Shown: positions 11,981 to 30,329, numbered from the stretch's first letter. The stretch: 64,000 bases of DNA from Candidatus Multivorans sp. (GCA_965247095.1 OZ251997.1:2816001-2880000), one strand, 5' to 3'. The notes: a model not told the origin generated them from the letters alone. Numbers and translations: made by a program.

Positions 11981-12341
11981 AAGCCTCCACTTGCTGCCGC
12001 GCCACCGGGAGCGCCTCGAAGCCCTGCTGCGCGAACACCTCCCCGGCGTGGAGGTCTGGGCCTACGGCAGCCGGGTGAACGGCCAGAGCCACGATGGCAG
12101 CGACCTGGATCTCGTGTTGCGGGGCCGCGGCTTGGATGAGATCGAGCTCTCCGCGCTCGCCGACTTCACTCAGGCGCTCCACGATTCGACCATTCCGTTC
12201 CTGGTTGAGGCCCGCGACTGGGCGCGTCTGCCGGAGCGGTTTCATCGGGAGATCGAGAGGGCGTATGTGGTGTTGAGGCCCCGTTCCATCTGCGCCAACC
12301 TTCGGTCACTCGTCGCGGTGCGCCAGGGGACGCTCCGGTGA
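11973..12341 (+). CDS. Minimal nucleotidyltransferase (MNT, HI0073-like)
   Basis: VWAYGSRVNG..DGSDLDLVL (GS-x-DxD) motif. Confidence 0.88.
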   Translation: MTESLHLLPRHRERLEALLREHLPGVEVWAYGSRVNGQSHDGSDLDLVLRGRGLDEIELSALADFTQALHDSTIPFLVEARDWARLPERFHREIERAYVVLRPRSICANLRSLVAVRQGTLR

Positions 12342-12526
12342 CAGCTCGGGAGTTGGCTGAACGCTTGGAACTCAAGGCACAGCAGATCCAGCGCTACGAA
12401 GCGGAGGGATACGCGAGCGCCAGCTATCGGCGGTTGTGCGAAGTCGCGCATGCAGTGGGGCTGGGGTCGAGAACGAAGATCCGACGCCCTACCGCGCCAG
12501 CGGATCCGGCCGGATCTGGAACTTGA
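12338..12526 (+). pseudogene. XRE-type HTH fragment
   Basis: RELAERLELKAQQIQRYEAEGYASAS..RLCEVAHAVG; N-terminal part missing; runs into the convergent gene. Confidence 0.6.
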
Positions 12527-14747: not shown

Positions 14748-14759
14748 CGGAATTCTCCT

Positions 14760-15224
14760 CTAGTCTGGTCCGCTGCGGACCGCGCCATCTTCGGCTCGCC
14801 GCTTCAGCGCCCGGCCGACGTCCGCGAAGCCGCGGTGCATGGCCCGGCCGAAGAGCAGGACGGCGAGCGGCGCCAGCGGGCCCTCAAGCGTATCCGTATT
14901 GAAGTACGCGCAACTGGTCTCGCTCCGTTTCTCGAGCCGCTGTTCCCGCAGCGCCTTCAGCAGAGACTTGTGGACGATCTTCGTGCTCCAGGACAGGAGG
15001 GTCGGCGGCTCGATCGCCACGAACCGTTCGGTCTGCTTCCGGTCGTAGCGGCCCAGCTTGACGTCAAAGTCGACGAAGGAGCCGACGCGTACGTCGGTCT
15101 TCGTGTAGGTCCGGGCGAAGGGATTCCACTCGTGGTAGCGGTCGACATCCACCAGGATGTCCCACACGGTGTCGATCGGGGCGTCGATCTCCACGGGTTC
15201 GGAAGTGGTGGCGTGTTTGAACAT
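14760..15224 (-). CDS. SRPBCC (polyketide cyclase/START-like) protein
   Basis: VEIDAPIDTVWDILVDVDRYHEWNPF and terminal ALKRRAE. Confidence 0.88.
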   Translation of the reverse strand: MFKHATTSEPVEIDAPIDTVWDILVDVDRYHEWNPFARTYTKTDVRVGSFVDFDVKLGRYDRKQTERFVAIEPPTLLSWSTKIVHKSLLKALREQRLEKRSETSCAYFNTDTLEGPLAPLAVLLFGRAMHRGFADVGRALKRRAEDGAVRSGPD

Positions 15225-15249
15225 CCTGGGCCTCCTGCTACTGACCGGG

Positions 15250-16230
15250 CTAGCAGCCCGGCGGCGCGTGTGTCTGGAGCAGCGCCTCGCTGGCCTCCCA
15301 CAACCTGACGCCCTTGGACGGGTCGGTGGCGTGCTCGGACGGGCGCTTTTCGCGCATCATGTGCAGGTAGATGCCGCTTCGTTTGCCGGCGTCGCCGGCG
15401 CAGCAGAGGTAGCTGACGGGCGCCGCGGCTCTGGCCGGCGGCAGGAAGAAGAGTCTCATCAACGGGTACACGAGAGGCTTCAACAGCAGCGGCGCCTCCC
15501 GCGCGATGGCGGTGCGGACGGGGCCGGGGCAGAGCGAGTGAACCGCGACGTGCCCCTCGCTATCGCGGTTCAAGCGTCGCGAGAGTTCGGTCGCATAGGT
15601 GCAGAGGACGAGCTTGCTCGCGCTGTAGTGCTTGATTCCGTCCCGGACGCCGTAGTCCGCGAAGGCGCCGAAGCGATCGAAGTCGATCGGCTCGGCGGAG
15701 CGGTGGGCATCGGAGGAGACGAGAACGATGCGGGGCGCGTTCTCGATCCTGGTGGTCGGGCGCACCGTCCCGTCCTTCAACCAGCGGTCGACGAGGACGC
15801 GATTGGCGAGGAAGTGGACGGCGAACATCGTCTCGAAACCCTGCGCCGTCCGGCGGGCACGGCGCGGCATCAGGCCCGCGTTGAGAACCGCGATGTCGAT
15901 CCTCGTTCCCCTCTCGTGCAGCTCGTCGCAGAGCCGGTGCACCGAACGCAGGTCGGAGAGGTCGCCCCGCAGCATCTCGACGCGGTCGGCGCCGGAGGCG
16001 GCCTTGACGTCTTCGCCCGCGTCGGGGTGTCCGCCTCGGCAGGCCATCAGGACGTGGCCGCCGCGTGCGGCCAGGTCGATGGCGACGGCTTTGCCGAGGC
16101 CGCTGTTGGCCCCCGTCACCAGGCACGTCTTGCCGTCGATCCGAACGGAGGCCGGCAGAGGCTCGATCGTCGGGCGGATGGCGGCGCGGTCCCCGACCGC
16201 TTTGCGGAGGGCGCCGAAGATTCTGTTCAC
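15250..16230 (-). CDS. SDR oxidoreductase (retinol dehydrogenase-like)
   Basis: TGANSGLG, NAG and YSASK motifs. Confidence 0.9.
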   Translation of the reverse strand: MNRIFGALRKAVGDRAAIRPTIEPLPASVRIDGKTCLVTGANSGLGKAVAIDLAARGGHVLMACRGGHPDAGEDVKAASGADRVEMLRGDLSDLRSVHRLCDELHERGTRIDIAVLNAGLMPRRARRTAQGFETMFAVHFLANRVLVDRWLKDGTVRPTTRIENAPRIVLVSSDAHRSAEPIDFDRFGAFADYGVRDGIKHYSASKLVLCTYATELSRRLNRDSEGHVAVHSLCPGPVRTAIAREAPLLLKPLVYPLMRLFFLPPARAAAPVSYLCCAGDAGKRSGIYLHMMREKRPSEHATDPSKGVRLWEASEALLQTHAPPGC

Positions 16231-16245
16231 GACCAGGCGTCTCCT

Positions 16246-17505
16246 CTACTCATGCGGAATGCCGTGCCTGTGCCGGTAGGGCGCGATGCCGTGCTCGATT
16301 GCCTCCGGGGTCAGGCCGAAACTGTCCGCATCGTAGACGTGCCGGCCGTAGCGGTGCTGGACGTTGCGGCCCGCGGTGCGCTCGGCGGCGCTCACCGCGT
16401 CCGGGCCGAAGGCGATGCCGGCCCGTTCGTAGACCTTCGCCAACTGCGCCATCGGTTCGTTGACGAGGTCGTAGTAGGAGATGTCGACGAAGCGGCGCGG
16501 ATCCGCCGCTTCCCGCGCGCGGGCGGTGCGCTCGACCAGGCGGCATGTCTTGGCGAGCCAGTGCGCGCCGATCTCCCCCGGTTCCACGCGGTCGCTGAAC
16601 ATCCCCCTGCCGTGGGCGACCATGCTGCAGAAGGAAGGGATGGTCTTGACCGGATCCCGGTGCGTTTGCACGATCGTCGCCTTGGGGAACACCTCGAGGA
16701 CGGTGTCGAGGTACTCCATGTGGTGCGGCGTCTTGAGCACCGAGTGACGACGCGGACGTTGCCAGTGCAGCACCTGGAGCAGGGTGCGGAACTCCTCGTA
16801 CGTTCTCGTGTGGTCCTGTTCTTCCAGCCAGCGCGCGTAGGTGGGGACATGCATCGTCGCTTCCGCCGACTGGCTCATGAAAGCCACGTCGAGGAGGAGC
16901 ACGTCCTCCTCGGGGGCGTCGTGTTCGGCGGGATGCACGGCAAAGAAGGCAGGGGCCAGGTAGGCGATTGCGCGTACCCCGATGAGCGCCTGCCTGATCC
17001 GGGCGTGGGGGTCTCCCGGCTCCTCGCGCGGCAGGGGCAGCGGATTCAGTCCCTCCCAGGCCGTGACTGCGCGGATCTCCGGGTGGGAGGCGATCAGCCG
17101 GTGCAGCGTGGTCGTGCCGGTCCGCTGGAGGCCGGCGATCACGACGACGCTGCCGAGGTCGATCTCCCGTATCTCCGGGCGCCTGCGGATCAGTTCCTCG
17201 ACCCGCAGGCGCGTGGCCAGAGCGCCTTCGATCCGCCGCTTCTGGATCCACCGGCCCAGGGTTGTGAGGTCGGCCTCCTCGTTGATCGAACGGACGAGCA
17301 CATGCAGCGCTTCTATGAACCACTCGTCGCCGAAGCTGGCGAGCCCCGTCCTCCTCCGAGCCCTGGCGACCATCTTGCCGACGTCGAGCTTCCCGCGCAG
17401 GCCAAGATGGCCGCCCGCCCGCCCGACCGCGTTCAGGAGCGCTATGGGAAGAGGCCGGTACGGCCGCTCGTAATCCGTCGATGTCTCGGCAACCCGCTTC
17501 GGCAT
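16246..17505 (-). CDS. PAPS-dependent sulfotransferase (Sulfotransfer_3-like)
   Basis: 5'-PSB GLQRTGTTTLH; LKTPHH; 3'-PB HRDPVKTIPS. Confidence 0.92.
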   Translation of the reverse strand: MPKRVAETSTDYERPYRPLPIALLNAVGRAGGHLGLRGKLDVGKMVARARRRTGLASFGDEWFIEALHVLVRSINEEADLTTLGRWIQKRRIEGALATRLRVEELIRRRPEIREIDLGSVVVIAGLQRTGTTTLHRLIASHPEIRAVTAWEGLNPLPLPREEPGDPHARIRQALIGVRAIAYLAPAFFAVHPAEHDAPEEDVLLLDVAFMSQSAEATMHVPTYARWLEEQDHTRTYEEFRTLLQVLHWQRPRRHSVLKTPHHMEYLDTVLEVFPKATIVQTHRDPVKTIPSFCSMVAHGRGMFSDRVEPGEIGAHWLAKTCRLVERTARAREAADPRRFVDISYYDLVNEPMAQLAKVYERAGIAFGPDAVSAAERTAGRNVQHRYGRHVYDADSFGLTPEAIEHGIAPYRHRHGIPHE

Positions 17506-17509
17506 CTAC

Positions 17510-18703
17510 TTACCGGCGAAGCGCTTTGAGCTCGCTCAGCTTGACGACCCGGGTCGCGGGTACCGGGTGCTCTTCGGCCCGGATCCACCGGAAGCACATG
17601 GTGCCGGAGGTGTGACCGGCGGTATCGAGCCAGTTGGGGCGCCCGGGGTCTTCGTGCGCGACGACCAGGCGGACGGAACCGTCGCTCTCGTAGTCGGCGA
17701 GATGCTTGTTGGTGTGGATCGTGTGGTAGCGGTAGTCCAGCGACTCCATCCAGTAGTTGTTGAGCTGGAAGTTCCAGGATTCGCATGCCGGCGGCGTGGC
17801 CTCGATCACCAGCGCCTCGTCCTCGGCCAGCCGCCAGTGGCTGTGGAAGTAGGCGATGTTCGGGTCGCCCCCGGCCTGGTTCGACGTCTCCTGGTCGAAC
17901 CGGGGCAGCGTGTTCGAGTGCTTCTGGAAGTCGCGCGCCCACTTCGCGAACAGGAGGGAGGCGCCCGCGACCAGGGTGCTCGCCGACCGCAGCCCTTCGT
18001 CGACCTGACTTGGGGTCAGCGGTGACGGGCGTTTCTCGTCCGGCGGACAGTTGATCCGTTCGATGGAAAGCTCGGCGGGGATTTCCGTGCGCCGGTCGAG
18101 GAACGTCTGGCGCACGATGAGGACGCCGGTCTTGGGCGTCATCGGGAGCCAGTTCCCGTCCTGCGGCTCGCAACTGAGGACCAGCTCGAAGCGGCCTCCC
18201 GCGTCGATCTCGAGTTCCGAGGCCTCGACGTAGCCGGTCGGGGGCATGCCGCCTCCCTGCCCGTAGTGCCCGGCCTGGGTGCCGAACCCGAGGTAGGCGA
18301 CGGTGTTGCGGCGTCCTGCGATCCGGTACTCGAACGCGCCCGAGATGGCGGCGGTCAGGTAGTGGTTGTCCGGGTTGTCGGAACCGAGCTTGACCGTCTC
18401 GTGGGCGACCCGATGGAGAACCGGCGCTCTCGGGTCGGCGTGCTCGAGGAAGGCCATCAGACCGGCGCGGGTCAGACGGCTCAGGTACCGGTAGCCCTCA
18501 GCCTGGTTGAACGCGTCGCGGGGCGTGCCGGGGAAGTTCAGCGATGCGCCCGCGGCCTTCAACGTGTCGCAGAACTCGTCCCAGGCGCGGCCGCTGACCA
18601 CCCGCTGTGCGGCGACATCGTCCTCGGACTTTCCACGGAGCTTCCGCATCGCCAGCGAGACCCGGCGAAAGAGCGCAAGCAGACCGATCGCGAACCTTCT
18701 CAT
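17510..18703 (-). CDS. DUF1214 domain protein
   Basis: AEGYRYLSRL, KLGSDNPDNHY, WNFQLNNYWMESLDY, DPGRPNWLDTAGH; typical sulfotransferase neighbour. Confidence 0.82.
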   Translation of the reverse strand: MRRFAIGLLALFRRVSLAMRKLRGKSEDDVAAQRVVSGRAWDEFCDTLKAAGASLNFPGTPRDAFNQAEGYRYLSRLTRAGLMAFLEHADPRAPVLHRVAHETVKLGSDNPDNHYLTAAISGAFEYRIAGRRNTVAYLGFGTQAGHYGQGGGMPPTGYVEASELEIDAGGRFELVLSCEPQDGNWLPMTPKTGVLIVRQTFLDRRTEIPAELSIERINCPPDEKRPSPLTPSQVDEGLRSASTLVAGASLLFAKWARDFQKHSNTLPRFDQETSNQAGGDPNIAYFHSHWRLAEDEALVIEATPPACESWNFQLNNYWMESLDYRYHTIHTNKHLADYESDGSVRLVVAHEDPGRPNWLDTAGHTSGTMCFRWIRAEEHPVPATRVVKLSELKALRR

Positions 18704-18723
18704 CGCTCCCTTCCTCCCCGGCG

Positions 18724-19212
18724 TCAGTCGGTCGGGCCGACCGGTGTGCCGTAGGGGACCGGTGGCTCGCGCTCGCGGGTCGCGCCGACGGCGACGATGC
18801 GCCAGCGCCCCCGTGACGAACGGAGATCGAGGCTCTGGGTCTCGTAGCTCGCCTCCCGCACGTACTCGACCTCGAGCCGCACCTTCCCGCCGAGAACCTC
18901 CTCATCGGTCACCGCGACACCCTTCACCTCGGCGAACCGCTGCCGGAGGTACTGCTCGAACGCGGCGTCTCCCATCTCGTCATGCACCGCTTCCAGTTGC
19001 TCGCGGACCTCACCGGCAAAGAGATCGAGATAGACCGCAACCGCGCCTTCGCGGCTCGCCTCGACCATCTGCCAGAAGACCTCCCGAGGTTCGCCCGCGT
19101 CGGCCGCGTCGCCCGAGCGCTCGGGCAGGCGGTCCCGAAGCGCCACGGCCAGGCCAGCCACCAGCACCAGGACGGTCAGCGCCGTCGCCCCCAGATTGCG
19201 CGTCATCTTCAC
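18724..19212 (-). CDS. Membrane-anchored hypothetical protein (NTF2-like fold suspected)
   Basis: One N-terminal TM helix, then a helix/strand pattern ending GRWRI; overlaps the hflK stop. Confidence 0.65.
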   Translation of the reverse strand: MKMTRNLGATALTVLVLVAGLAVALRDRLPERSGDAADAGEPREVFWQMVEASREGAVAVYLDLFAGEVREQLEAVHDEMGDAAFEQYLRQRFAEVKGVAVTDEEVLGGKVRLEVEYVREASYETQSLDLRSSRGRWRIVAVGATREREPPVPYGTPVGPTD

Positions 19213-20141
19213 TGCGGTCTGTTCGGTCCGGGGGTCAACTCGCGGCGCAGGAAGTCGATGTCGATCGTGCTCTGGCCGGGCTCCAGGATCGTCTTCTTCA
19301 TGCGGGGGAAGACACGTTCCATCGTCTCTAGAACCATGCGGGTGCGGATCTCGTCGCGCGCGCTCTGGTCGGCGCCGGCGACCCTGCGGAAACGGTCGGC
19401 TTCACCGGTGGCCCGGTCGACCTCTGCGGTCCGGAAGCCCTCGGCCTGCGCTACGAGCGTGCGCGCCTCGCCGCGGGCTACCGGGACCACCTCATTGCCG
19501 TAACTCTCGGCCTCGCGGATCAGGCGGTCCCGGTCCTCGCGCGCGCTGGCCACGTCGTTGAAGGCCTCGCGCACGGGGCTCGGCGGGCTCACGCCTTCCA
19601 GACTCACCGAGAGTACGGTCGCGCCGGTCCCGAAGCGGTCGAACAGCTCCTGCGATGCGGCCTGGACGTTCTGCTGCACGGCCACCTTGCCGGTGGTCAG
19701 CAGTTCGTCGACGCTCATGCCGGCGATCACCTCGAGCAGGGCGCTCCGCCCGCTCGCCTGCAGCAAGGCCTCGACATCGGCGAAGCGCAGCGAGTAGGCG
19801 AGCGGGTCGTGGATCGAGTACAGGATCACCAGCCGGACATGGACCACGTTCCGGTCGCCAGTCAACCAGCGCGCTTCGGCGGCGGAGGAGTCGCCGCCCA
19901 GGACCCGGTCCGCGGCGGCGAAGCCCAGGGTCAGGCGCTTGGCTTCCCGCACCTTCAGCTTGTCGACCCGCCCCACCGGCCGCGGCCAGTTCCAGTGCAG
20001 TCCAGGTCCGGCGGGCGCCACCCTGGCCCGGCCGAGTACCCGCACCACCGCCTCCTCGTCCGGCGCGACGAAGTACACGCCCCAGCCCGCCCACATCAGG
20101 GCCAGGACCAGAGCCGCGGTCGGGAGGCCGCGAAGCCTCAC
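19209..20141 (-). CDS. hflK: HflK-like SPFH protein
   Basis: VAPDEEAVVRVLG..PGLHWNWPRP; LTGDRNVV; PPSPVREAFNDVASAREDRDRLIREAESY..ARGEA. Confidence 0.9.
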   Translation of the reverse strand: MRLRGLPTAALVLALMWAGWGVYFVAPDEEAVVRVLGRARVAPAGPGLHWNWPRPVGRVDKLKVREAKRLTLGFAAADRVLGGDSSAAEARWLTGDRNVVHVRLVILYSIHDPLAYSLRFADVEALLQASGRSALLEVIAGMSVDELLTTGKVAVQQNVQAASQELFDRFGTGATVLSVSLEGVSPPSPVREAFNDVASAREDRDRLIREAESYGNEVVPVARGEARTLVAQAEGFRTAEVDRATGEADRFRRVAGADQSARDEIRTRMVLETMERVFPRMKKTILEPGQSTIDIDFLRRELTPGPNRPQ

Positions 20142-21109
20142 TCGGATCCTCCACCCAGCAGTCGGAAGAGCTCGGAGTCCGCCGACAGGATGAGCGTCGT
20201 CTGGTCGTCCAGGATCGACTCGTAGGACTCGAGGGTGCGCAGGAACCGGTAGAGAGCCGGGTCCTGCCGGTAGGCGTCGCCGTAGATGCCGGCCGCCTCG
20301 GCGTCGCCCTTGCCGCGGAGGATCTCGGCGTCGCGGTAGGCGGCCGCCAGGATCACCTCACGGTCGCGGTCGGCCTCGGCGCGGATGACCATCGCCTGCT
20401 CCTCGCCCTGGGCCCGATACTCCTTGGCGATCCGCTCGCGTTCCGCCCGCATCCGGGCATAGACGGACTCCAGGTTCTGCTCCGGGAAGCTCAGGCGGAC
20501 GAGCTGCACCTCCAGGATCTCGACCCCGAGTTGAGGGCCGGACACGGCGCCCGCGGATTCCCGGACCTCGGCGGAGATTTGTTCGATCCGCAGTTGCCGG
20601 GGCTCGGTCGACACGAGCTGTGAGAGTTCCGTGCGGCCGAGCGCGGCCGCCAGACCGGCCCACACCACGTCGTGCAGGCGCATCTCGGCGCCCGAGATGT
20701 CGCCGATCGTCTCAAGGAACCGGGCCGGGTCGGCGATCCGCCAGACGACCGCGGTATCGACGACCAGGTTCTTCTTGTCCTGGGTCAGGAACTCGACCGG
20801 CGCCGGATCGTAGAGGAGCACCCGGTTGTCGAAGCGGAGCCGGCGGTCGATCGGCAACTTGAACTGAAGCCCCGGCGCTTCGATCGTTCGAACCGGCTTG
20901 CCGAAACGGGTGACGATCGCGCTCTCGGTCTCCGGTACGACGAACACGGAGCGGGCCAGCGCGACGACGGCCAGCACGGCCAGACCGCCGCGCCACCAGG
21001 ACGTGGCCCGGCCGGGCGCGTGCTCCTGCCCGTCACCGTTCCTGGGCACCCGGGCATCCTTGCCCGCATCCGGGTGGTCGTCGTGACTTCCGTGGCTTTG
21101 ATCAATCAT
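20138..21109 (-). CDS. hflC: HflC-like SPFH protein with His-rich N-terminus
   Basis: ATG at 21109 overlaps the ATPase stop; FLTQDKKNLVVD, VYARMRAERERIAKEYRAQGEE, FLRTLESYE. Confidence 0.9.
   Translation of the reverse strand: MIDQSHGSHDDHPDAGKDARVPRNGDGQEHAPGRATSWWRGGLAVLAVVALARSVFVVPETESAIVTRFGKPVRTIEAPGLQFKLPIDRRLRFDNRVLLYDPAPVEFLTQDKKNLVVDTAVVWRIADPARFLETIGDISGAEMRLHDVVWAGLAAALGRTELSQLVSTEPRQLRIEQISAEVRESAGAVSGPQLGVEILEVQLVRLSFPEQNLESVYARMRAERERIAKEYRAQGEEQAMVIRAEADRDREVILAAAYRDAEILRGKGDAEAAGIYGDAYRQDPALYRFLRTLESYESILDDQTTLILSADSELFRLLGGGSE
21041..21073 (+). repeat. REP-like palindromic element inside the hflC 5' coding region
   Basis: cctgggcacccgggcatccttgcccgcatccgg; encodes PDAGKDARVPR on the - strand. 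Confidence 0.75.
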
Positions 21110-24100
21110 TGGTCTACCTCGTTCTGGGCAGTGCCCGGTGGAGGAACGTACACATCGAGAAGGCGGTCGCCCGGCTCGTCCACGAAGACGAAGCGCTTGC
21201 GGCCGGCGTCGGCGTCGGTGATCAGCTTCGGTCTGCCGGCGAGTGAGCTCTCCAGCGTCTCCAGTTGGAGGCGGAAGCGGTGGAGGTTGAGATCGCGCCG
21301 GTACCCTCCGGCGCGCAGTTCGAAGCGCCGGCTCTCGCCGCGACCGGCCTCGACTCGCTCGTTCCGATAGCCCTCGGCCTCGAGGAGTTGCCGTTGCGCT
21401 TCGCCGCGGGCAACGGGCAGGCGTTCCAGGGCGTAACCCTCCGCCTGGTCGATCAGGGTCTCCCGCTCCTCGAGCGCGCTCGCCGCGTCGCGGAACGCAT
21501 CGACCACATCGAGCGGCGGATGAGCGTCCTGAACGGTGGCGCTGACCACTTCGACGCCGATGCCGAGGCGGTCGAGCACGGCGGCGAGGTGCTCGCTCCA
21601 GGCGCGCTCGATCCCCTCCCGCTTGCCGGTCAGCACGTCGTCCAGCGAGTGGCTGGCGAGCACGGTGCGCAGGGAGCGCTCGGCGCTCGCTTCGACCAGG
21701 AGCGCCGGATCGGCTGTGGCGAATGCGAATGCGGCGGGGTCGGCGACGCGGTAGTGGACGCGGGCGGCGACCTCGACAAGGTTCTCGTCCCCGGTCAGCA
21801 TAAGTCGTTCGAGCGGCGGCGTCTCGTCGAAACCGGCGTGGCGCACGTTCCACTCGTAGGTCGCTTCGCCGCCGGTTGCTCCGTAGGCCCCGGTTGGCGC
21901 CGGCGACCTGGGTGAACCGACGGCGGCCACCCGCAGGCGATCCGGCTCGACGCGGGTGACCCGATCAACCGGCCACGGCCAGCGCCAGTGCAGACCCGGA
22001 CCGAGCTCGTCGCCGACGTGGCGGCCGAAGCGCTGCACCAGACCGACTTCCTGCGGTGCGATCGTCCGCACTCCGGCCCCCGCCCAGACCGCGAAGAGCA
22101 CGAACGGCGCCGCGCGCAGCAGCCGCGGCGCCAGCGACCGGAGTCGCGCCGGGCTGGCCTCGAGGGCGTGTTCGAGGCGGTGGACGGCCTCACGCCGGCC
22201 GGCGTTCCACGATCTCCAGCCGGCGGCCATCCCCTCCGCCGCTCCGGCGAGAGCGGGGAAGCGGCCGAGACGGCCGCCTGGCCGTTCGGCCACCGCGCGA
22301 CCCTCGTAGAGCAGACGAACGCAGTTCAGGATGACCAGCAGGGAGGCGGCCTGATGGACGATCGCCGCGGCGGCCGGAGGCAGCCAGCCGAAGGCCGCGA
22401 AGCCGACGGCGACGAAGTTGATGCCGAAGGCGAAGACCAGGATGCTGCTGCGGATCCGCGCCACCACCCGGCGCGAGTACCGCAGCAGCGGCGCCAGGTA
22501 GTCGAGCCGGTCAGGCAGCAGCACGACCTGGGCTGCCTCGGCAGAGAGGTCCGCCGCGCCGTGACCGATCGCGACGCCGACCGTGGCGGCCGCGAGCGAC
22601 GGCGCATCGTTGATCCCGTCGCCCACCATGAGAACGTTGCGGTTGCCGCGCGAGAGGTCCCTGAGCCGGCGCACCTTGTCTTCGGGGAGGACCTCCGCGT
22701 GGACCTGGTCGATGCGGGTTCGGCGGCCGATCGCCCTGGCCGTCGCTTCGGCGTCGCCGGTCAGCATGACGATCGGGTCGACGCCGGCTCGCCGCAGGTC
22801 GGCGACCGCGTCGGTCGCCTCGTCGCGCAGCGGATCGGCAAGCGCGATCGCGCCGGCGAAGGCGCCGTCGACCGCTACGGCGAGCCGCGTCTCGCCGCTG
22901 CCCGGGGTCGGCTGGAGGCTCTCCGCGATGGCGTCGAGGTCGTCCTCGTTCACCACGTCGGCCAGGAGCGCCGGGTTGCCGACCGCGATGTCGTGGCCAA
23001 GGGCGGTGGCGGTCACGCCCCGGCCGGGGTGCAGCTTGAAGCTCTCGGGCTCCGACAGCGCGAGTTGCCGCTCGCGGGCCTCGGTCACCAGCGCCCGGCC
23101 GAGCAGGTGTTCCGAGGTCAACTCGGCGCTGGCCGCGAGTTGGAGCAGTCGATCCTCCGCCACGCCCGGGGCGGGCAGGATCGCGGCCAGGGCCGGACGC
23201 CCGCAGGTCAAAGTACCCGTCTTGTCGAGCACGCAGGCATCGATCCGCGACAGCGACTCGATCACGTCCCCGCCCTTGACCAGGGCGCCCTCGCGCGCCA
23301 GCCGGGCGATTGCGGAAGCCATCGCCGCCGGCGTCGCCAGCACCAGCGCGCACGGGCAGGCGACGATCAGGGCCGCCACCGTGCGCATCATCTCGCCGGT
23401 GAAGAAGTAGATGGCGGCGGCGGCCACGAGCACGGCAGGCAGGAAGTACCGGGCGAGCTTGTCCGCGGTGCGTACGACCCGCGCCCGCCGGCTCTGCGCG
23501 TCCTCGATCAGGTTGGCGATGCGGGCGACCGTGGTGTCGCTGCCGGTGCGTTCGGAGCGGATGTCGAGGACGCCGTACTCGTTCAGGCTGCCGCTCCACA
23601 CCGCATCGCCGACGCCGAGTTCGGCGGGCAACGGTTCGCCGGTCACGCTGCTCTGGTCGACCGACGACTCGCCGCGTTCGATCGTGCCGTCGACCGCCAC
23701 CCGCTCGCCGGCGAGCACCCGCACCAGGTCGCCGACTTCGACCTGGTCCAGGCCGACGAATTCCTCGCCGCCGTCGCGCAGCACCCGCACCTGGTCCGGC
23801 TGGCTGGCGACGAAGCCGGCGATCGCCCCCTTGGCGCGGTCGACCGTCCAGTGCTCGATCCCCTCGCCGATCAGCATGATGAACATGACCTCGGCGGCAG
23901 CGAAGTACTCGCCGATCGCGACCGCCGCGCCGGCCGCGATGGCAATCGTCAGGTGCGACGAGAAGTGCCCGCGCAGCAGGTCGAGGATCGCGTGGCGGAT
24001 GAGCGGATAGCCCGCGACCAGGGTCAGGATCAGCGCCAGGTCGATGCCGGCGACGTTGCGCAGCGCGCCGGTCAGGTACAGCAGGAGCAGCACGCCGACC

Positions 24101-24183
24101 GCGCCGCAGAGCGCGATGTAGCCGATCCGCTGCAGCAGGCCGTGGCTATGGCCGTGCCCGTCGTCGTGGAAGTGTGCGCCCAT
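21106..24183 (-). CDS. P1B heavy-metal P-type ATPase fused to a C-terminal HflK-like SPFH domain
   Basis: His-rich N-terminus, TGE, CPC, DKTGT, SEH, MLTGD and GDGINDAP. Continues without a stop into a TM segment and SPFH motifs (PGLHWRWPWP, MLTGDENLV, HPPLDVVDAFRD, ARGEA). Confidence 0.92.
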   Translation of the reverse strand: MGAHFHDDGHGHSHGLLQRIGYIALCGAVGVLLLLYLTGALRNVAGIDLALILTLVAGYPLIRHAILDLLRGHFSSHLTIAIAAGAAVAIGEYFAAAEVMFIMLIGEGIEHWTVDRAKGAIAGFVASQPDQVRVLRDGGEEFVGLDQVEVGDLVRVLAGERVAVDGTIERGESSVDQSSVTGEPLPAELGVGDAVWSGSLNEYGVLDIRSERTGSDTTVARIANLIEDAQSRRARVVRTADKLARYFLPAVLVAAAAIYFFTGEMMRTVAALIVACPCALVLATPAAMASAIARLAREGALVKGGDVIESLSRIDACVLDKTGTLTCGRPALAAILPAPGVAEDRLLQLAASAELTSEHLLGRALVTEARERQLALSEPESFKLHPGRGVTATALGHDIAVGNPALLADVVNEDDLDAIAESLQPTPGSGETRLAVAVDGAFAGAIALADPLRDEATDAVADLRRAGVDPIVMLTGDAEATARAIGRRTRIDQVHAEVLPEDKVRRLRDLSRGNRNVLMVGDGINDAPSLAAATVGVAIGHGAADLSAEAAQVVLLPDRLDYLAPLLRYSRRVVARIRSSILVFAFGINFVAVGFAAFGWLPPAAAAIVHQAASLLVILNCVRLLYEGRAVAERPGGRLGRFPALAGAAEGMAAGWRSWNAGRREAVHRLEHALEASPARLRSLAPRLLRAAPFVLFAVWAGAGVRTIAPQEVGLVQRFGRHVGDELGPGLHWRWPWPVDRVTRVEPDRLRVAAVGSPRSPAPTGAYGATGGEATYEWNVRHAGFDETPPLERLMLTGDENLVEVAARVHYRVADPAAFAFATADPALLVEASAERSLRTVLASHSLDDVLTGKREGIERAWSEHLAAVLDRLGIGVEVVSATVQDAHPPLDVVDAFRDAASALEERETLIDQAEGYALERLPVARGEAQRQLLEAEGYRNERVEAGRGESRRFELRAGGYRRDLNLHRFRLQLETLESSLAGRPKLITDADAGRKRFVFVDEPGDRLLDVYVPPPGTAQNEVDQ

Positions 24184-24199
24184 CAGGAGGGTGCGCCGC

Positions 24200-24955
24200 T
24201 CACACCGCGAACAGCAACATGGCCAGCCCCGAACTCGCGATCGCGAGGCCGCTCAGCGTGTGCGCGTAGGCCCGCAGGCCGGGGAATCGCACGAAGTCGA
24301 GGCCCCGGTAGGCGAGGGCCACGACCGCCGCCATCGTCGCGATCGTCGTCACCCCGAAAGCCACGGTCACCGGCACCACCGCCCACAGGCCGACCTGGAA
24401 GGCGGGCACCATCAGGATGGGGATCAGCGGCTCGCAGGGCCCGAGCACGAAGATGACGAACAGGCTCCAGGCGGTGACGCCGGCGACCCCGGCGGCTTTG
24501 CCGGACGGGTGCTCGTGGCCGCCGGCCGTGGGATGGTCATGCGAGTGGACGAGCCCGCCGGCGTGCTCATGAACGTGCCGCTGCGACCTGCGTCGACGCG
24601 CCAGCGACCAGGCGGCGTAGGTCAGCCCGAAGACGACGAGCGCCCAGGCCGCCAGGTCCCCGCGCACCGCTTCGATCGACTCGAAACTGCCGACGCGGCC
24701 CTGCATCCAGTGGTAACCCTCGCGGGTGTCGAGACCGGTAGCGAAGATCGCCAGCCCGATGCCGGCGCCGCCGAGCAGGATCGACGACGCGACGTGGCCG
24801 CCGCCGCACAGCCCGGTGATCCACAGTGTCCGGCGCAGCGACCATCCGCGCGCCTTGCCCAGGACCACGAACGGCAGCGTGTGATCGATGCCGATCACCG
24901 TGTGAACGAAGCCGATGCCGACCGCGGCCGAGACCAGGACCCAGACTGTGTCCAT
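24200..24955 (-). CDS. His-rich Ni/Co permease-like membrane protein (NiCoT/UreH/DsbD_2-like)
   Basis: GFVHTVIGIDH, GHVASS, His-rich loop HVHEH..HSHDH..HEH, GPCEPLIP; about 6 TM segments. Confidence 0.75.
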   Translation of the reverse strand: MDTVWVLVSAAVGIGFVHTVIGIDHTLPFVVLGKARGWSLRRTLWITGLCGGGHVASSILLGGAGIGLAIFATGLDTREGYHWMQGRVGSFESIEAVRGDLAAWALVVFGLTYAAWSLARRRRSQRHVHEHAGGLVHSHDHPTAGGHEHPSGKAAGVAGVTAWSLFVIFVLGPCEPLIPILMVPAFQVGLWAVVPVTVAFGVTTIATMAAVVALAYRGLDFVRFPGLRAYAHTLSGLAIASSGLAMLLFAV

Positions 24956-24982
24956 GAAGCGCCGAGGGTACCAGCGCGGTGA

Positions 24983-25097
24983 CCCTGGGAACCCGGGTGG
25001 CGCGATGCGCGCCACCCGCGACCCACTCGTGCGCCCGTCATGGGGCGCACGGAGTGGCACGCGGGCATCTTGCCCGCATCCGGCGCGAAGCGCCGGC
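24983..25097 (+). repeat. Modular REP-like element (hairpins A-B-C-D)
   Basis: gggtggcgcg/cgcgccaccc, gtgcgccc/gggcgcac, gcgggca/tgcccgc, ccggcgc-gaa-gcgccgg. Confidence 0.88.
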
Positions 25098-27944
25098 CTA
25101 CTCGACCGTCACCCAGATCGGCGACGACCAGGCGATCTCCCGATTCTTCTGGATCACCCGCACATAGTAGTAGTGCTCGCCGGGCTCGACGTCGCTGTCG
25201 ACGAAGGTCAGGCTGACCTCCTGTTCGAGGTTCTGGCGGTTGTAGAGGAAGGTCTGGTCGCGGATGATGTCGATCTGCTCGATGCGGGCGGTGCCGATCA
25301 CGTTGACCACAAGCTCGAAGCGGCCCGAAACCTCGGCGATGTCGCCCTGCAGGTACTCGCGACCGTTCGCGCGCATCCGGTAGTCGAGGACGATGTTGTC
25401 GGTCGCTGCATAGGAGTGGCGCTTCTTCATCGCGTCCAGGAGGCCCCCGGCGGTGAAGTCCTCGGCGATCGTGGCGGCGTAGGAGATGTGGGTCGAGATG
25501 TGGTCCGACGCGGCCTGCACGCCGAGCTTGTAGCCCTTGGCCCATGCGTTCCAGACGAACCCGGCGGGCTCGAAGCCGCCCTGCTGGCCGATCGGTTTCT
25601 CCGCGGTCGCGGCGCGGGGAGCGCCCTCGTACTCGGCCGACGTGCGGTCGCCCTGGTAGATCTCGACCAGCGGTTCGACGTCGGGATCGTTGTCGCGCCA
25701 GTCGGTGCCCATGCCGGTGGCCGAGGTGTGGGGGATCGAGATCGCGTCGTGCTCCCGGAGGTAAGCGAACAGCCTCGCCGCACCTTCTTCGTGTTCTTGC
25801 TCCGCCTCGGTGATCGGCAGGGTCGGGATGCCGCGCTTGGCCGAGAGGATGTTGCGGTGGCCGTCCGGATAGCTGATGCTGCGCTCGTAGGTGTAGACGG
25901 GCACGAAGCTCCCCGGCAGACGGAAGATGTCGGCGATCTGCGGGTGTAGCCAGTTCACGTATTCGATGTCCTGGCCGCCCAGGTTGTTGTGCTCGCTGAC
26001 GCCCAGGAAGTCGAGTTCGGCGGCGTCGAGGGCGTAGCGGTAAGCCTCCATCAACGAACCGTCGTTCAGACCGTCGTGCGAGAACTCCGTGTGGCGGTGG
26101 GTGTCGCCGCGGTAGATGCGGTAGGTGCGGCCTTCCGATTCGATCGTGTAGGCGCGGATGCGGGCCACGTCTTCGGCCTCGTTGGGGTGGACCGGGTAGG
26201 TGTGGTATTCGCGCACGTCCGGGTCGACGAGCCGCGGCGGCGTGGCCTCGCCGGTCAGCGCGGGGAGCTTCGCCGCGTTGATCGAGGAGTGGTCGAACAG
26301 GTACTCCTCGGAGTCCCGGTTGTCCGTCGGCCAAGCCGCGAACAGGTTGCCCCGGCCGTCCGAGGCCAGCTCCCAGCGCACGTCCTGGCGGCCGCGACTG
26401 AACGGCAAGTGGAGCGGCCGCGTCCATGCGCCGCCGACGTAGGCGGTGCCGTGGAGCTGCCAGACCGCGCGGTGGGCCGGCGTGAAGTCCGGCGTGTCGC
26501 GCGCCCGGATCGTGCGGTGGCGGAAGAACAGCCACATCCGGCCGTCGGCGTCGGTCTGGAGCACGGGCAGGTCGTTGAAGCCCGTGATGTACTCGGGGAG
26601 TTCCTGTTCGAGCAGCTCGTTCACGTCGGCTGCGGGAACCTGCCAGCGGACGCCGTCCCACACCGCGACCGCCAGGGAGCGCCACTCGTAGATACGGGTG
26701 GCTTCCTTGTAGATCTCGAAGCCCGAGTCCTTGCCCCACTGGAAGCCGCTCTCGTTCCAGGCCGCCCAGAGTCGGTTCTGCCGATCGCAGGCGATCGAGA
26801 CGTGGGCCTCGAACTTCGGCGTGTCGGCGACCGGGGCCGTGTCGCCCCAGCGCTCGCCGGAGAAGCGGCGCAGCAGGATGTCGTAGTTGCCCTGGTCGTA
26901 GGTGTCCCAGGCGACGTAGACGGAACCGTCACCGCAGGCCGCGACAGCCGGCGTCCAGTCGTTGGCGGGCGAGGCCGAGACCGTCTCCTCGGCCGACCAG
27001 CCCGAGCCGTCGTGGCGCCGGGCGAGGATGTCGGAGCGGCCGTCGCGGAAGCCCTGCCACACGAGCCACAGATTGCCGCTCGAGTCCGTGACGAGCTCGT
27101 GTTCGATATCCGCCTGGGGCGCGGAGGTCAGGCGCTCGGTTGCCGACCAGTCGCCGGTGTCCGCGTCCTCGAGATAGCGGCCGTAGAGGTCGAAGTTGGC
27201 GTCGACCTGCTCGGACCAGACCAACCAGGGCCTACCCTGGCCGTCGCGGCCCAGTTTCGGCATCAGCCGGTCGCCCGGCTCGTCGGTCACGGGGACCGCC
27301 GGCTGCCAGGTCGAGCCGTCGAAGCGGCGCGCCATGATCGAGACGCCGCCGTCCCGGTAGGCGGTCCAGGCGGCCCAGACCTCACCGTTCTCGCCGCTTG
27401 CCAAGGTCGCGAAGTCGTTCTCGTCGTCCGGCGACGACAGCGGCTCGGCCGGCGCGACCCGGTCGGCCAGCACAGCGCCGTCGAGGAAGGAGAGCTCCTC
27501 GTCAACGTCGAGGTCCGCCGGCCGCAAGTCGAAGTCGCCCCGCGGCGTCGTGAACGCAAGCCGCGTCCCACCGCCGCCCGCCACGTCGACGACGATGCCG
27601 GGCTGATGCAGGTAGGTCACCGTTCCCAGCGGGTCCTCCCACTGGTACACCCGCCGCGGGTAGTTCATGCCCTCCCGCGTCGCCATCGTCCAGGCGAGAC
27701 CGTCGACCGTCTCGGTCGGATGCACACTCCAGTTGCGGACGGCCAGCACCTCGCCGCCCGTGGCCTCGACCGAACCATCCCACGTCTGCGTTTCCGTGTC
27801 CGTGATGCCGAACCGGACTCTGACCGAGACGACGTCGTCGCCCGCAAGCGGCGGAATCGCCTGTGCGGTGAGGGAACCTGCCGCGAGGACCAGGGCAGGA
27901 AGGCAGCAGAGAGCGGCGGCGCGCAGGACGAATTGTCGAGCCAT
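25098..27944 (-). CDS. Secreted protein with beta-propeller region and C-terminal PHP-type (DUF3604/CehA-like) metallohydrolase
   Basis: Signal peptide; repeated W-x-x-W propeller blades; GDTHRHTEFSHDG, SEHN, IPHTS, ASDH, terminal AWSSPIWV. Confidence 0.8.
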   Translation of the reverse strand: MARQFVLRAAALCCLPALVLAAGSLTAQAIPPLAGDDVVSVRVRFGITDTETQTWDGSVEATGGEVLAVRNWSVHPTETVDGLAWTMATREGMNYPRRVYQWEDPLGTVTYLHQPGIVVDVAGGGGTRLAFTTPRGDFDLRPADLDVDEELSFLDGAVLADRVAPAEPLSSPDDENDFATLASGENGEVWAAWTAYRDGGVSIMARRFDGSTWQPAVPVTDEPGDRLMPKLGRDGQGRPWLVWSEQVDANFDLYGRYLEDADTGDWSATERLTSAPQADIEHELVTDSSGNLWLVWQGFRDGRSDILARRHDGSGWSAEETVSASPANDWTPAVAACGDGSVYVAWDTYDQGNYDILLRRFSGERWGDTAPVADTPKFEAHVSIACDRQNRLWAAWNESGFQWGKDSGFEIYKEATRIYEWRSLAVAVWDGVRWQVPAADVNELLEQELPEYITGFNDLPVLQTDADGRMWLFFRHRTIRARDTPDFTPAHRAVWQLHGTAYVGGAWTRPLHLPFSRGRQDVRWELASDGRGNLFAAWPTDNRDSEEYLFDHSSINAAKLPALTGEATPPRLVDPDVREYHTYPVHPNEAEDVARIRAYTIESEGRTYRIYRGDTHRHTEFSHDGLNDGSLMEAYRYALDAAELDFLGVSEHNNLGGQDIEYVNWLHPQIADIFRLPGSFVPVYTYERSISYPDGHRNILSAKRGIPTLPITEAEQEHEEGAARLFAYLREHDAISIPHTSATGMGTDWRDNDPDVEPLVEIYQGDRTSAEYEGAPRAATAEKPIGQQGGFEPAGFVWNAWAKGYKLGVQAASDHISTHISYAATIAEDFTAGGLLDAMKKRHSYAATDNIVLDYRMRANGREYLQGDIAEVSGRFELVVNVIGTARIEQIDIIRDQTFLYNRQNLEQEVSLTFVDSDVEPGEHYYYVRVIQKNREIAWSSPIWVTVE

Positions 27945-28061
27945 GGCTCCTCCAAACGAGGCGAACAGGAACGGGGTGAGCGGTTCATCCTAGCCCCTGC
28001 ATCTCTTGGCACGCGGGTACAGTGTGATTCAGTCACGCTGCCCTGGAAGGAGCACCCGACC

Positions 28062-28298
28062 ATGTCCAACGTGGTAAGGAAGACAATCTCTCTGCCGCCG
28101 GATCTTGCCCGCGCCGCCGAACAGATCGCGGAAGCGGAGGGGAAGACCCTGAGCGCCGTTGTTCAAGAGGCACTTCGAAAGGCCTGCGCCCACTACTTCG
28201 AAGCGGAGCTTGAAGCGCTGCAGGGCTACTGGAGTCGCCGAGCGCAGGAGGGAGGTGTACTGACGGAGGAAGATCTTGATCAGTGTCTCCAAGAGTGA
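28062..28298 (+). CDS. CopG/RHH antitoxin-like protein
   Basis: RKTISLPPDLARAAEQIAEAEGKTLSAVVQEALR; RBS aaggag; upstream palindrome agtgtga-ttcag-tcacgct at 28021-28039. Confidence 0.85.
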   Translation: MSNVVRKTISLPPDLARAAEQIAEAEGKTLSAVVQEALRKACAHYFEAELEALQGYWSRRAQEGGVLTEEDLDQCLQE

Positions 28299-28336
28299 GG
28301 GTCGTCTTCGTGTCCCTCGGCGAGTATCTGCGCTGA
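28295..28336 (+). pseudogene. Collapsed PIN/VapC toxin remnant (13 aa)
   Basis: GTGA overlap with the antitoxin stop; MRVVF-VSLGEYLR* resembles the start and end of PIN toxins. Confidence 0.55.
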
Positions 28337-28385
28337 TCTTGGCGGCGCTACACTGATTCATTCATTTGCTCGAGGGAGGTTCGCC

Positions 28386-30329
28386 GTGCGCCGAATAGTC
28401 GTTTTGATCCTGAGCCTGACCGTACTTCTGTTCCTCGGTTGCGCCGCCGGCGACTCCGACTCATCCGACCCCTCCGCGGCCGCTGCCGGCGCGTCCGCTG
28501 CCGCCGGACCGCCCGCGGACCGCCAGGCCTTCTTCGGCGACCTGCACGTCCACACGCGCTACTCCTACGACGCCTTCGTGTTCGCCACCCGCGCCGGTCC
28601 CGACGAGGCCTACGAGTTCGCCAAGGGGAACCCGATCCAGCACCCCGCCGGCTTCGATCTCCAGCTCGACCGGCCGCTGGACTTCCAGGGCGTCGCGGAC
28701 CATGCGAACTACCTCGGGATGCTGCCGGCGATGATGGACCCCGGCTCTCCGGCCTACAACCACCCGGCGGCCGAAACCGTGCGCACCGCGCAGACCGTGA
28801 CCGAGCGGCGGGGCATCTTCCGCGCCATGCAGCCCTACGTGCGTTACATGGAGGACGCCGATCCGAGCATTCGCGAGCACCTCAACAAGGATGTCGTGCG
28901 TTCCGCCTGGAGCGAGATCGCGGCCTCGGCGAACCGCCACTACGAGCCCGGCGTGTTCACGACCTTCATCGCCTACGAGTACACGTCCGCCGGCGCCGGA
29001 GGCATCTACGAGAACCTGCACCGCAACGTCGTCTTCCGCGGCGCCGAGGCGCCCGACATCCCCTTCTCACGGCTCGACTCCTACAACCCGGAGGACCTGT
29101 GGGCCCGGATGGACGAGTGGCGCGCCGACGGCTTCGAGGCGATCGCGATCCCCCACAACACGAACGGCTCCGGCGGACGCATGTTCGAGTACGAGTACTT
29201 CGAGGGCGGCGCCATCGATCAGGCCTACTCGGATCTCCGCAGCCGCAACGAGCCCGTCGTCGAAATCACCCAGACCAAGGGAACCTCGGAGACCCACCCC
29301 GCGCTGTCGCCGAACGACGAATGGGCTGGTTTCGAGATCATGCCCTACCGGGTCTCGACCAGCATTGCGAGCGAGCCGCCGGGCAGCTACGTGCGCGACG
29401 CCTTCCGCCGCGGCCTCACGATCGAGGCCGGCGGCGTGTCGAACCCGTACAAGGTCGGCGTGATCGGCTCGTCCGACACTCACGTCGCCGCCGGCGCCTT
29501 CGACGAGGAGACCTACTGGGGCGCCTCGGGCCTCATGCAGCAGACCGCCGAGCAGCGCGGCTCGGTGCCCAGCGAGCCCGCCGGGGCGGGAGCGAGCTTG
29601 CAGGAGCCCAGCGCCGCCGCGCAGCCGGTCGACGACGGCACTGGCCGCATCTACCCCTTCACGACGGCGATCACCAACGGCGCCTCGGGCCTCGCCGCTG
29701 TCTGGGCCAACGAGAACACCCGCGAGTCGATCTTCGACGCCATGCGCCGCAAGGAGACCTTTGGCACCAGCGGTACCCGGATCCAGGTCCGTTTCTTCGG
29801 TGGCGCCGCACTCTCGGGCCTCGATCTCGACGACCCGGACCTCGTCGCGGCCGCGTACGAGGCTGGCGTCGCGATGGGCGGCGACCTCACCGATGAGAGC
29901 GGTGGCGAAGCACCGAGCTTCCTCGTTTGGGCGATGCAGGACACCATGGCGGCACCGCTACAGCGCGTCCAGATCGTCAAGGGCTGGGAATCAGACGGCG
30001 AGACAGCCGAACAGGTCTACGACGTCGCCTGCTCCGACGGCCTCGAGGTCGACCCGGCCACTCACCGTTGCCCCGACAACGGCGCCACCGTCGATCTCAC
30101 CGACTGCTCAATCAGCACCGATGTCGGCGCCGGCGAACTCAAGACCCTCTGGACAGACCCCGACTTCGACCCGGGCCAGCGCGCCTTCTACTACGCCCGG
30201 GTCCTCGAGAACCCCACCTGCCGCTGGTCGTCCTGGGATGCGATCCGAGCCGGTACAACTCCCCGCCAGGACTTCCCGGCAATCATCCAGGAACGCGCCT
30301 GGTCGTCGCCGATCTGGTACACGCCGTAG
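28386..30329 (+). CDS. DUF3604 family lipoprotein (PHP-like metallohydrolase)
   Basis: FFGDLHVHTRYSYDA, ADHA, NLHRNV, IPHN, QTKGTSETHP, GSSDTH, IQERAWSSPIWY. Confidence 0.92.
   Translation: MRRIVVLILSLTVLLFLGCAAGDSDSSDPSAAAAGASAAAGPPADRQAFFGDLHVHTRYSYDAFVFATRAGPDEAYEFAKGNPIQHPAGFDLQLDRPLDFQGVADHANYLGMLPAMMDPGSPAYNHPAAETVRTAQTVTERRGIFRAMQPYVRYMEDADPSIREHLNKDVVRSAWSEIAASANRHYEPGVFTTFIAYEYTSAGAGGIYENLHRNVVFRGAEAPDIPFSRLDSYNPEDLWARMDEWRADGFEAIAIPHNTNGSGGRMFEYEYFEGGAIDQAYSDLRSRNEPVVEITQTKGTSETHPALSPNDEWAGFEIMPYRVSTSIASEPPGSYVRDAFRRGLTIEAGGVSNPYKVGVIGSSDTHVAAGAFDEETYWGASGLMQQTAEQRGSVPSEPAGAGASLQEPSAAAQPVDDGTGRIYPFTTAITNGASGLAAVWANENTRESIFDAMRRKETFGTSGTRIQVRFFGGAALSGLDLDDPDLVAAAYEAGVAMGGDLTDESGGEAPSFLVWAMQDTMAAPLQRVQIVKGWESDGETAEQVYDVACSDGLEVDPATHRCPDNGATVDLTDCSISTDVGAGELKTLWTDPDFDPGQRAFYYARVLENPTCRWSSWDAIRAGTTPRQDFPAIIQERAWSSPIWYTP

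Follow-up and report, generated by a model that had tools for sequence, protein, structure and literature searches.

We describe a gene that joins a complete P1B-type metal-transporting ATPase to an HflK-type SPFH domain, found in a stretch of 64,000 nucleotides from Candidatus Multivorans sp. (GCA_965247095.1, OZ251997.1:2816001-2880000), referred to here as the window. The fusion recurs in several classes of Acidobacteriota, lies upstream of genes for HflC-like and HflK-like partners, and has counterparts in which two other families of metal exporter are joined to the same kind of domain. We consider it likely that these genes encode a dedicated HflK/C-type SPFH ring carrying a covalently tethered transition-metal exporter. 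The gene and its parts are the following (TM, transmembrane; pLDDT, predicted local distance difference test).

21106..24183, minus strand: fusion gene, open reading frame and translation of 1025 amino acids (P1B-type ATPase, linker, TM9 and HflK-type SPFH/coiled-coil region)
22306..24183, minus strand: ATPase part, residues 1-626, with a His-rich N-terminal tail, eight predicted TM helices and A, P and N domains; CPC lies in TM4, N589 in TM5 and H610-Q-A-A-S614 in TM6
22156..22305, minus strand: cytoplasmic linker, residues ~627-676, about 50 residues, Arg-rich, a low-confidence helix with pLDDT <50 at 631-674
22054..22155, minus strand: ninth membrane helix, residues ~677-710 (hydropathy 691-710; AlphaFold2 helix 677-702), aligning with the TM helix of E. 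coli HflK
21109..22053, minus strand: HflK-type SPFH domain, long coiled-coil helix and C-terminal strands, residues 711-1025 (Band_7, match to 7vhp_E, AlphaFold2 elements)

An initial annotation of the window had reported an uninterrupted frame of 1025 amino acids at this place without giving a strand; it is indeed a single unbroken frame of 1025 codons, on the minus strand (24183..21106). All the ATPase motifs that the annotation listed could be located (TGE, 181-183; CPC, 276-278; DKTGT, 320-324; GDGIND, 521-526), and its linker and membrane segment correspond to the Arg-rich linker and a hydrophobic stretch at 691-710. Three Pfam domains were detected above their cut-offs: E1-E2_ATPase at 127-297 (166.5 bits), Hydrolase at 314-533 (97.9 bits) and Band_7 at 707-917 (83.8 bits). 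The NCBIfam models TIGR01525 (541.5 bits, cut-off 346.25), TIGR01512 (445.9, cut-off 313.5) and TIGR01933 hflK (182.8, cut-off 159.4) also matched. Hydropathy places four helices ahead of the A domain, a pair between the A and P domains and another pair beyond the P domain, followed by the ninth segment. An AlphaFold2 model built from 70 homologues (mean pLDDT 74.6) comprises a confident pump, the low-confidence linker (631-674), a helix at 677-702, the SPFH domain, a helix of ~70 residues and C-terminal strands; the linker is also weakly conserved in alignments of the fusions. The C-terminus of a P1B pump is cytoplasmic, so the ninth helix would carry the SPFH/coiled-coil half to the periplasmic side, which by what is known of the family is HflK's own topology.

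The pump half has the eight-helix membrane domain of P1B ATPases (MA, MB and M1-M6) by hydropathy, by fold match and in the AlphaFold2 model, where the helices span 13-38, 49-70, 76-90, 93-126, 235-262, 265-297, 560-597 and 603-625 with pLDDT mostly of 80-90. Foldseek matched it to CopA, ZntA and the P1B-4 pump 7qbz (7r0g_A, E 4.8 × 10−45, target-normalised TM-score 0.76). Its DKTGT, TGE and GDGxND motifs, the CPC in TM4, TIGR01525, and PF00122 and PF00702 above their cut-offs place it among the P1B-type ATPases. In 70 aligned fusions DKTGT, G182, E183, G521, G523, N525 and D526 are invariant, and T181 and D522 are conserved in at least 90%. The pump half is thus, by its sequence, a P1B ATPase with every catalytic motif, and transport activity is predicted. 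Like sCoaT (7qbz) and the other P1B pumps compared (CopA, 3rfu and 7r0g; ZntA, 4umv), it shows the full pump architecture with no HMA domain; unlike them, it carries an extra C-terminal 400 residues.

The closest solved relative is 7qbz (P1B-4; E 3.1 × 10−93 over residues 4-625, His-rich tail included), and His-rich cytoplasmic tails occur on the pump of the window fusion and of many relatives. With the aligned 7qbz sequence and the SPC named in the available sections of a review of mycobacterial pumps (PMC13460109) as the P1B-4 reference, the layout and the His-rich tail agree with that subclass but the membrane motifs do not: the fusion has CPC in TM4 where 7qbz has SPC, and HQAAS in TM6 where 7qbz has HEGST (HEGxT in the subclass). 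The same sections give the P1B-6-like (CtpC type) signature as CPC or SCA in TM4 with N-X18-H-N-X-(S/T) between TM5 and TM6, and describe the mycobacterial zinc exporter CtpC as having CPC and an Asn...His-Asn-x-Ser/Thr motif across TM5-TM6. On motif pattern alone the fusion (N589-X20-H610-Q-A-A-S614) is similar to this signature but differs in spacing and residues. Among the metal-specific NCBIfam models, the cadmium model TIGR01512 scored 446 bits, exceeding its cut-off of 313.5, and the copper model TIGR01511 scored 389, slightly under 397. A divalent ion of the Zn/Cd/Co type is the most likely substrate, at about an even chance, because of the TIGR01512 score, the P1B-4 pump as closest solved relative, and the Cu/Zn and CDF (Cation_efflux) sister fusions presented below; Cu(I) is possible.

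The last 345 residues of the fusion match E. coli HflK (7vhp_E) by sequence with E 1.7 × 10−31. The fused domain has the components of the HflK equivalog family, that is, a TIGR01933 score above the cut-off, an N-terminal TM helix, an SPFH domain and a coiled coil, and it aligns with E. coli HflK, known from HflK/C-FtsH structures (7vhp, 7wi3, 9cz1, 9cz2), at 685-754, which covers the TM helix and the beginning of the SPFH domain, and at 794-995, which covers the remainder of that domain and the coiled coil, with an extra loop between the two segments. This loop of ~40 residues, found in the ATPase-fused domains, contains YEWNxxH (776-782 in the window fusion); in 70 sequences E777, W778, N779 and H782 are invariant and Y776 is conserved in at least 90%. 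AlphaFold2 modelled it with pLDDT <50. Besides the loop, the window domain differs from E. coli HflK in the transporter at its N-terminus and in a His (His888, within DAHPP at the end of the SPFH domain) where E. coli HflK has Arg.

Downstream of the fusion lie two SPFH genes, where the initial annotation had one, and a further gene.

20138..21109, minus strand: HflC-like partner, 323 amino acids, His-rich N-terminus, TIGR01932 hflC 223.3 bits (cut-off 134.4)
19209..20141, minus strand: free HflK-like partner, 310 amino acids, TIGR01933 187 bits
18724..19212, minus strand: gene 4, 162 amino acids, N-terminal membrane anchor and NTF2-like domain, with a start that overlaps the HflK-like stop

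The TGA of the fusion overlaps the ATG of the HflC-like gene (ATGA), and the start of the HflK-like gene overlaps the HflC-like stop (GTGA); by these overlaps the fusion, the two SPFH genes and gene 4 are four translationally coupled genes. The annotation had also stated that the fused domain matches a separate HflK gene motif for motif, and the translations of the two indeed have PGLHWxWPxP, LTGDxNxV, PPxxVxxAFxD and ARGEA in common, the separate gene being the free HflK-like partner (19209-20141); this partner shares 34% identity with the fused domain and 36% with canonical HflK. Gene 4 matched no Pfam family; its AlphaFold2 model (pLDDT 82.4) led in Foldseek to NTF2-like and SnoaL-like proteins, with a best target-normalised TM-score of 0.59. 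A His-rich cytoplasmic tail is present on a free ring subunit in three of ten ATPase-type operons and in none of four canonical pairs. On the free HflK-like partner, two such tails have 22 His in 85 residues (L108:7013-8002, plus strand) and 10 in 68 (L079:6966-7937, plus strand), the stretches reaching the membrane helix; canonical HflK has no such tail.

A search of protein sequences with the SPFH part, limited to long proteins, yielded 204 matches, 120 of them listed; among the matches listed, 118 of 120 contained all three Pfam domains, and the other two were shorter and missed PF00122 only. In a scan of one genome per species (509 relatives), the best 80 loci were examined. DKTGT and CPC stood in the same open frame as the SPFH domain in 76 of the 80, four loci being cut by contig ends and none split, and the reading frame was kept in all 76 informative loci, down to ~40% identity. 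An HflC-like gene followed in 77 of the 80 loci and a free HflK-like gene in 72 (the eight without one were loci of at most 6.7 kb). Gene 4, detected with a hidden Markov model from five homologues, had a homologue in 65 loci, downstream on the same strand in 64; ten of the 15 misses were short loci. The nearest relatives are Candidatus Multivorans and the others belong to Thermoanaerobaculia, Blastocatellia, Bryobacterales and Terriglobia, single records being labelled otherwise. In an even sample of the phylum (401 genomes, into which G152 and G049, both unpublished, enter only as rows without the fusion), the intact fusion was found in 20 genomes, including all nine of the window's genus. 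Judged from these comparisons, the fusion is real and old, and is conserved in Acidobacteriota of several classes.

Contigs of four public runs span the junction (22080-22310), and those of run X1 tile 20900-24400 without differences. The initial annotation had singled out this junction for checking; relatives from two other studies differ there by frame-preserving changes only, namely a 3-nucleotide deletion at 22277 and a −1 change at 22093 offset by a +1 change at 22096. It had also allowed for a fusion peculiar to this assembly or for homologous loci that encode separate proteins. The fusion extends beyond this assembly, and a separate-protein locus was found in none of the 76 loci with readable upstream DNA. 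We therefore reject an assembly artefact or a lost stop, on the domains of the homologues, the 76 fused loci with none split, and the junction contigs.

Several apparent exceptions were inspected. One further genome of the phylum sample, G393, has a frameshifted copy (L039:5323-8449, plus strand; frames of 749 and 291 amino acids) in an otherwise intact operon. It was rejected as a natural two-gene form, the break lying inside the SPFH domain (the Band_7 profile starts at position 53); the frameshift reflects a recent pseudogene or an assembly indel. Five short look-alikes, inspected on longer contigs, start within the ATPase or within the SPFH domain, or carry a frameshift, and are truncated calls rather than split forms. 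The long frames around HflK-like matches in genomes G349, G002 and G245 are ordinary HflK genes with upstream frames that are open in GC-rich DNA.

In the phylum sample, the next-best matches to the fused SPFH domain sit in open frames of 590-790 amino acids. Six genomes have an SO_0444-family Cu/Zn efflux permease (ArsP_1, PF03773) fused to HflK, confirmed by Pfam in 6 of 6, and the three permease fusions tested on NF033936 scored 353-358 bits (cut-off 300). One genome has a CDF protein (PF01545) fused to HflK. Downstream of both types of fusion come an HflC-like and an HflK-like gene, in that order. Wider searches found permease fusions in 113 of the best 150 cluster representatives, counting those of at least 650 amino acids, and CDF fusions with both domains in 31 of 46 matches, with names from other candidate phyla. 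The exporter families differ from the P1B pump of the window, but the gene order and a His specific to the fused domains (see below) are the same. By their domain content, exporters of transition metals from three unrelated families are thus joined to one kind of ring subunit and share its partner genes. In the four other-exporter loci scanned (L043, L044, L046, L027), the genes downstream included no gene-4 homologue.

Two further observations concern such loci. In genome G376 a protein of 606 amino acids (L138:1716-3533, plus strand) combines Band_7 at 321-517 with an N-terminal region of ~300 residues that contains a number of hydrophobic segments and matches no Pfam family; HflK may here be fused to a fourth kind of membrane protein. 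In genome G176 a VWA-domain protein (L046:8085-9569, minus strand) lies directly upstream of permease::HflK and includes a weak CopC-like segment (30.1 bits, cut-off 23.3; no separate stretch reported).

The position corresponding to His888 separates fused from free SPFH domains. A His occupies this column in all 17 fused domains (ATPase-fused, 10/10; permease-fused, 6/6; CDF-fused, 1/1) and in none of the free HflK-like partners (0/17), canonical HflK (0/13) or HflC-like proteins (0/25). By pattern search the motif occurs in all 32 matches of at least 540 amino acids from the CDF-fusion search (30 of them with both Pfam domains) and in 95 of 113 long permease fusions. Permease-fused domains also have a Trp-His pair in the loop corresponding to YEWNxxH, in three of the four rows shown.

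The genome of the window is a single contig of 4.62 Mb, 98.96% complete. It has a canonical hflK-hflC pair ~820 kb from the fusion operon and a single ftsH ~330 kb away; no ftsH was found in or beside the operon. A third HflK-like match lies elsewhere in 20 of the 21 fusion-bearing genomes of the sample and was checked as a canonical pair in four. The window operon thus differs from the E. coli system in holding two HflK-type subunits, one fused and one free, with no ftsH nearby. The fusion is the sole P-type ATPase found in the genome, and no CDF gene was found there by a search that matched 14 of 14 control genomes; one unfused ArsP_1 permease is present.

We built a quick maximum-likelihood tree of 72 SPFH domains with SH-aLRT support. 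HflC-like and HflK-like rows split with support 100, and the following clades were recovered.

ATPase-fused domains: support 99
canonical HflK: support 98
free HflK-like partners of ATPase operons: support 95
HflC-like partners of ATPase operons: support 97
canonical HflC: support 98
permease-fused domains: support 93

The free HflK-like partners of all three operon types group weakly (82). The inner groupings of the three SPFH proteins of the ATPase operons agree with one another, as expected if the operon was inherited as a unit. Orthology of the fused domain with the canonical HflK of the same lineage is not borne out: the two fall in separate clades (99 versus 98) and the canonical pair is kept. 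A further difference from the E. coli complex is that the fused domain of the window stands in a clade apart from the canonical HflK that its own genome also has.

The fused HflK part (residues 681-1025) and the HflC-like protein, each with its own alignment, were submitted to complex prediction in three runs, with three controls. The interface score ipSAE was 0.64 in each run and 0.01 in the best control; 58 of 80 solved complexes attain the mark applied to this score, as do 2 of 110 mismatched pairs. The partner was modelled with pLDDT of at least 79, and at least 96% of contacts agreed between runs. In the predicted interface the two proteins lie side by side, in contact along the SPFH domain and the long helix. 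The fused HflK domain is therefore predicted to bind the HflC-like protein, although the score may reflect likeness to the solved HflK/C complex, which the predictor may already have learned. The operon resembles E. coli HflK/C in the adjacent HflC-type gene and in this predicted SPFH plus coiled-coil interface. The initial annotation had gone further, building the pump into its own HflK/C cage as a metal-transport microdomain rather than a protease regulator. Its dedicated HflK/C-type assembly has gained from the coupled partners, their own clades, the separate hflKC, the predicted binding and the two further exporter families, but a closed cage, a pump inside it and the exclusion of FtsH are conjecture.

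How such an assembly might work can be outlined. HflK and HflC alternate in the E. coli ring, and the fused HflK domain would likewise alternate with the HflC-like protein. The free HflK-like protein could fill some of the HflK positions and so lower the number of pumps per ring, since twelve pumps in one ring would be crowded. The ring would act as a metal-efflux platform, possibly gathering the exporters and keeping them stable, and on its periplasmic side His888 and the Trp/His loop may take over the ion after export. A bolder extension, which we hold to be doubtful, makes the SPFH dome a periplasmic receiving chamber into which several tethered exporters would discharge metal, with the His, the Trp/His loop and the NTF2-like protein binding, buffering or passing it on. 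If true, SPFH cages would be compartments for transported solutes as well as protease fences, and the three natural fusions would supply evidence from sequence, for the first time, on the clients inside them.

A number of points weigh against a dedicated exporter-carrying ring. The fused domain lies above the HflK equivalog cut-off of TIGR01933, which would be compatible with an FtsH-related role. The complex prediction concerns a textbook-like pair with solved HflK/C structures, and the ring, its stoichiometry and the position of the pump are what we infer. The tree leaves the order among the fused clades unsettled, and because the relations of the three kinds of fused domain are not settled by it, their shared His may be inherited rather than independently selected. 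Five full-length related loci have no detectable gene 4, and no metal-responsive regulator was recognised among the window genes scanned. Finally, the membrane-site motifs (CPC, N589, HQAAS) match neither of the P1B subclass signatures compared (P1B-4 and P1B-6-like), which makes the metal uncertain.

The first of these points bears on a different explanation, in which the fused HflK and its partners still work with FtsH, the fusion delivering the pump to the protease or shielding it, so that pump level is set by regulated proteolysis. The fused domain passes TIGR01933 (182.8 versus 159.4), its neighbour passes TIGR01932, the solved HflK/C complexes are FtsH complexes (entry names 7vhp and 7wi3), and the genome has one FtsH. 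In the available sections of PMC13460109, moreover, loss of the mycobacterial scaffold leads to loss of the P1B pumps, and protection from degradation is among the explanations discussed. Nevertheless, the genome of the window keeps a canonical hflK-hflC pair, the third HflK-like match is present in all but one of the 21 fusion-bearing genomes of the sample, the clades of the fused and partner proteins are separate from those of canonical HflK and HflC, ftsH is absent from the operon and its surroundings, and the three exporter families are all metal exporters, which argues for a metal-related rather than a general proteolytic logic. Control by FtsH thus appears unlikely.

Another explanation draws in part on the neighbouring genes. 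Upstream of the fusion lies a further membrane protein.

24200..25060, minus strand: upstream membrane protein with a His-rich loop; likely start Met36, nucleotide 24955

It had no Pfam or NCBIfam match, and a feature-based Atlas search led to DsbD_2/NicO-like clusters, which is a lead only. By tblastn it is directly upstream in 31 of the 80 loci and in opposite orientation in three more; it may be a second metal transporter, and its link with the operon is confined to near relatives. Next on the same strand, directly upstream (25098-27944, minus strand), is a protein of 948 amino acids with a CehA/McbA-type domain (NF038032, 51.9 bits, below the cut-off of 80) and a weak DUF3604 match; this predicted metallohydrolase is also present in a same-genus genome (L041) and absent from more distant loci. 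A full DUF3604 protein (28386-30329, plus strand; 731 bits) is a predicted metallohydrolase beside the operon.

On the other side, beyond gene 4, a co-directional run (12489-18703, minus strand; gaps of 4-25 nucleotides) encodes DUF1214, a sulfotransferase, a short-chain dehydrogenase, a polyketide-cyclase-like protein and a protein of 752 amino acids without a known family. A promoter and terminator scan of 12000-28600 gave no promoter-like sites and nine terminator-like sites against 5.8 expected, which is uninformative. Farther away, hsdM (type I methylase, 9294-10952) is partially duplicated (8589-8985, 9432-9523 and 10958-11257): ~95 nucleotides of its 5' part (93-98% identical) and 300 nucleotides of downstream sequence (84%) recur just upstream of hsdM.

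The metallohydrolase-like neighbours fit an explanation in which the exporter supplies the periplasm with metal for exported metalloenzymes, hand-off taking place at the SPFH dome and the NTF2-like protein, and which would matter under metal scarcity rather than excess. In this genus the CehA/McbA-type gene precedes the operon on the same strand, with the DUF3604 gene divergent beside it; a sole P-type ATPase with no CDF found, in a genome 98.96% complete, suggests a housekeeping-like pump; and His888 and the Trp/His loop are periplasmic and specific to fused domains. Yet the hydrolase neighbours are not conserved beyond near relatives (loci L036 and L038), and the window showed neither a Zur-type regulator nor a gene for zinc uptake. 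We judge such a supply role to be quite improbable. A neutral joining of a pump and an hflK paralogue by loss of a stop codon, leaving independent halves and a functionless tether, would suit the weakly conserved, low-confidence linker but is very hard to reconcile with a frame kept in 76 of 76 informative loci, frame-preserving linker indels, the same fusion having arisen or persisted with three unrelated exporter families, and a residue specific to the fused domains. These three explanations overlap with that of a dedicated ring carrying a tethered exporter.

The closest functional parallel of the fusion operon is the mycobacterial effluxosome. According to the available sections of PMC13460109, PacL proteins act with CtpC, CtpG and CtpV on the same concept, a membrane scaffold from the same operon that clusters and stabilises P1B pumps, and PacL1 bears a His-rich metal-binding motif. 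This motif resembles the His-rich tails on some ring subunits of the fusion operons, and the CPC and Asn...His pattern of CtpC described there resembles N589...H610 of the fusion. As presented in the same sections, PacL is small, non-SPFH and non-covalent, with a cytoplasmic scaffold domain, whereas the scaffold of the fusion operon is periplasmic and joined to the pump.

No description of exporter-SPFH fusions was found in the full-text literature searched, with subscription journals and supplements outside its scope, and no paper on Candidatus Multivorans was found in the literature searched. The main survey of SPFH proteins in prokaryotes (Hinderhofer et al. 2009, PMC2636767) does not contain the terms ATPase, transporter or fused. 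Public databases name the fusion proteins automatically as 'FtsH protease activity modulator HflK' or 'Cu+-exporting ATPase', and permease::HflK and CDF::HflK have automatic annotation only. HflK/C rings themselves are known; what we regard as new is a non-protease client tethered covalently to an SPFH system of the HflK/C type.

Taken together, our results suggest that SPFH/HflK-type rings may be built around metal exporters, beyond FtsH alone. A conserved natural fusion bears on what these rings do past FtsH control and on the membrane proteins inside them, since it names a client directly. The client cannot dissociate from a covalent tether, so that stoichiometry and position inside or outside the ring become accessible. 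Scaffolded metal-pump platforms, so far those of mycobacterial PacL, would be extended to another phylum and to an unrelated scaffold. For Candidatus Multivorans itself, the fused pump is the sole P-type ATPase found, and the arrangement is therefore probably central to the organism's metal balance.

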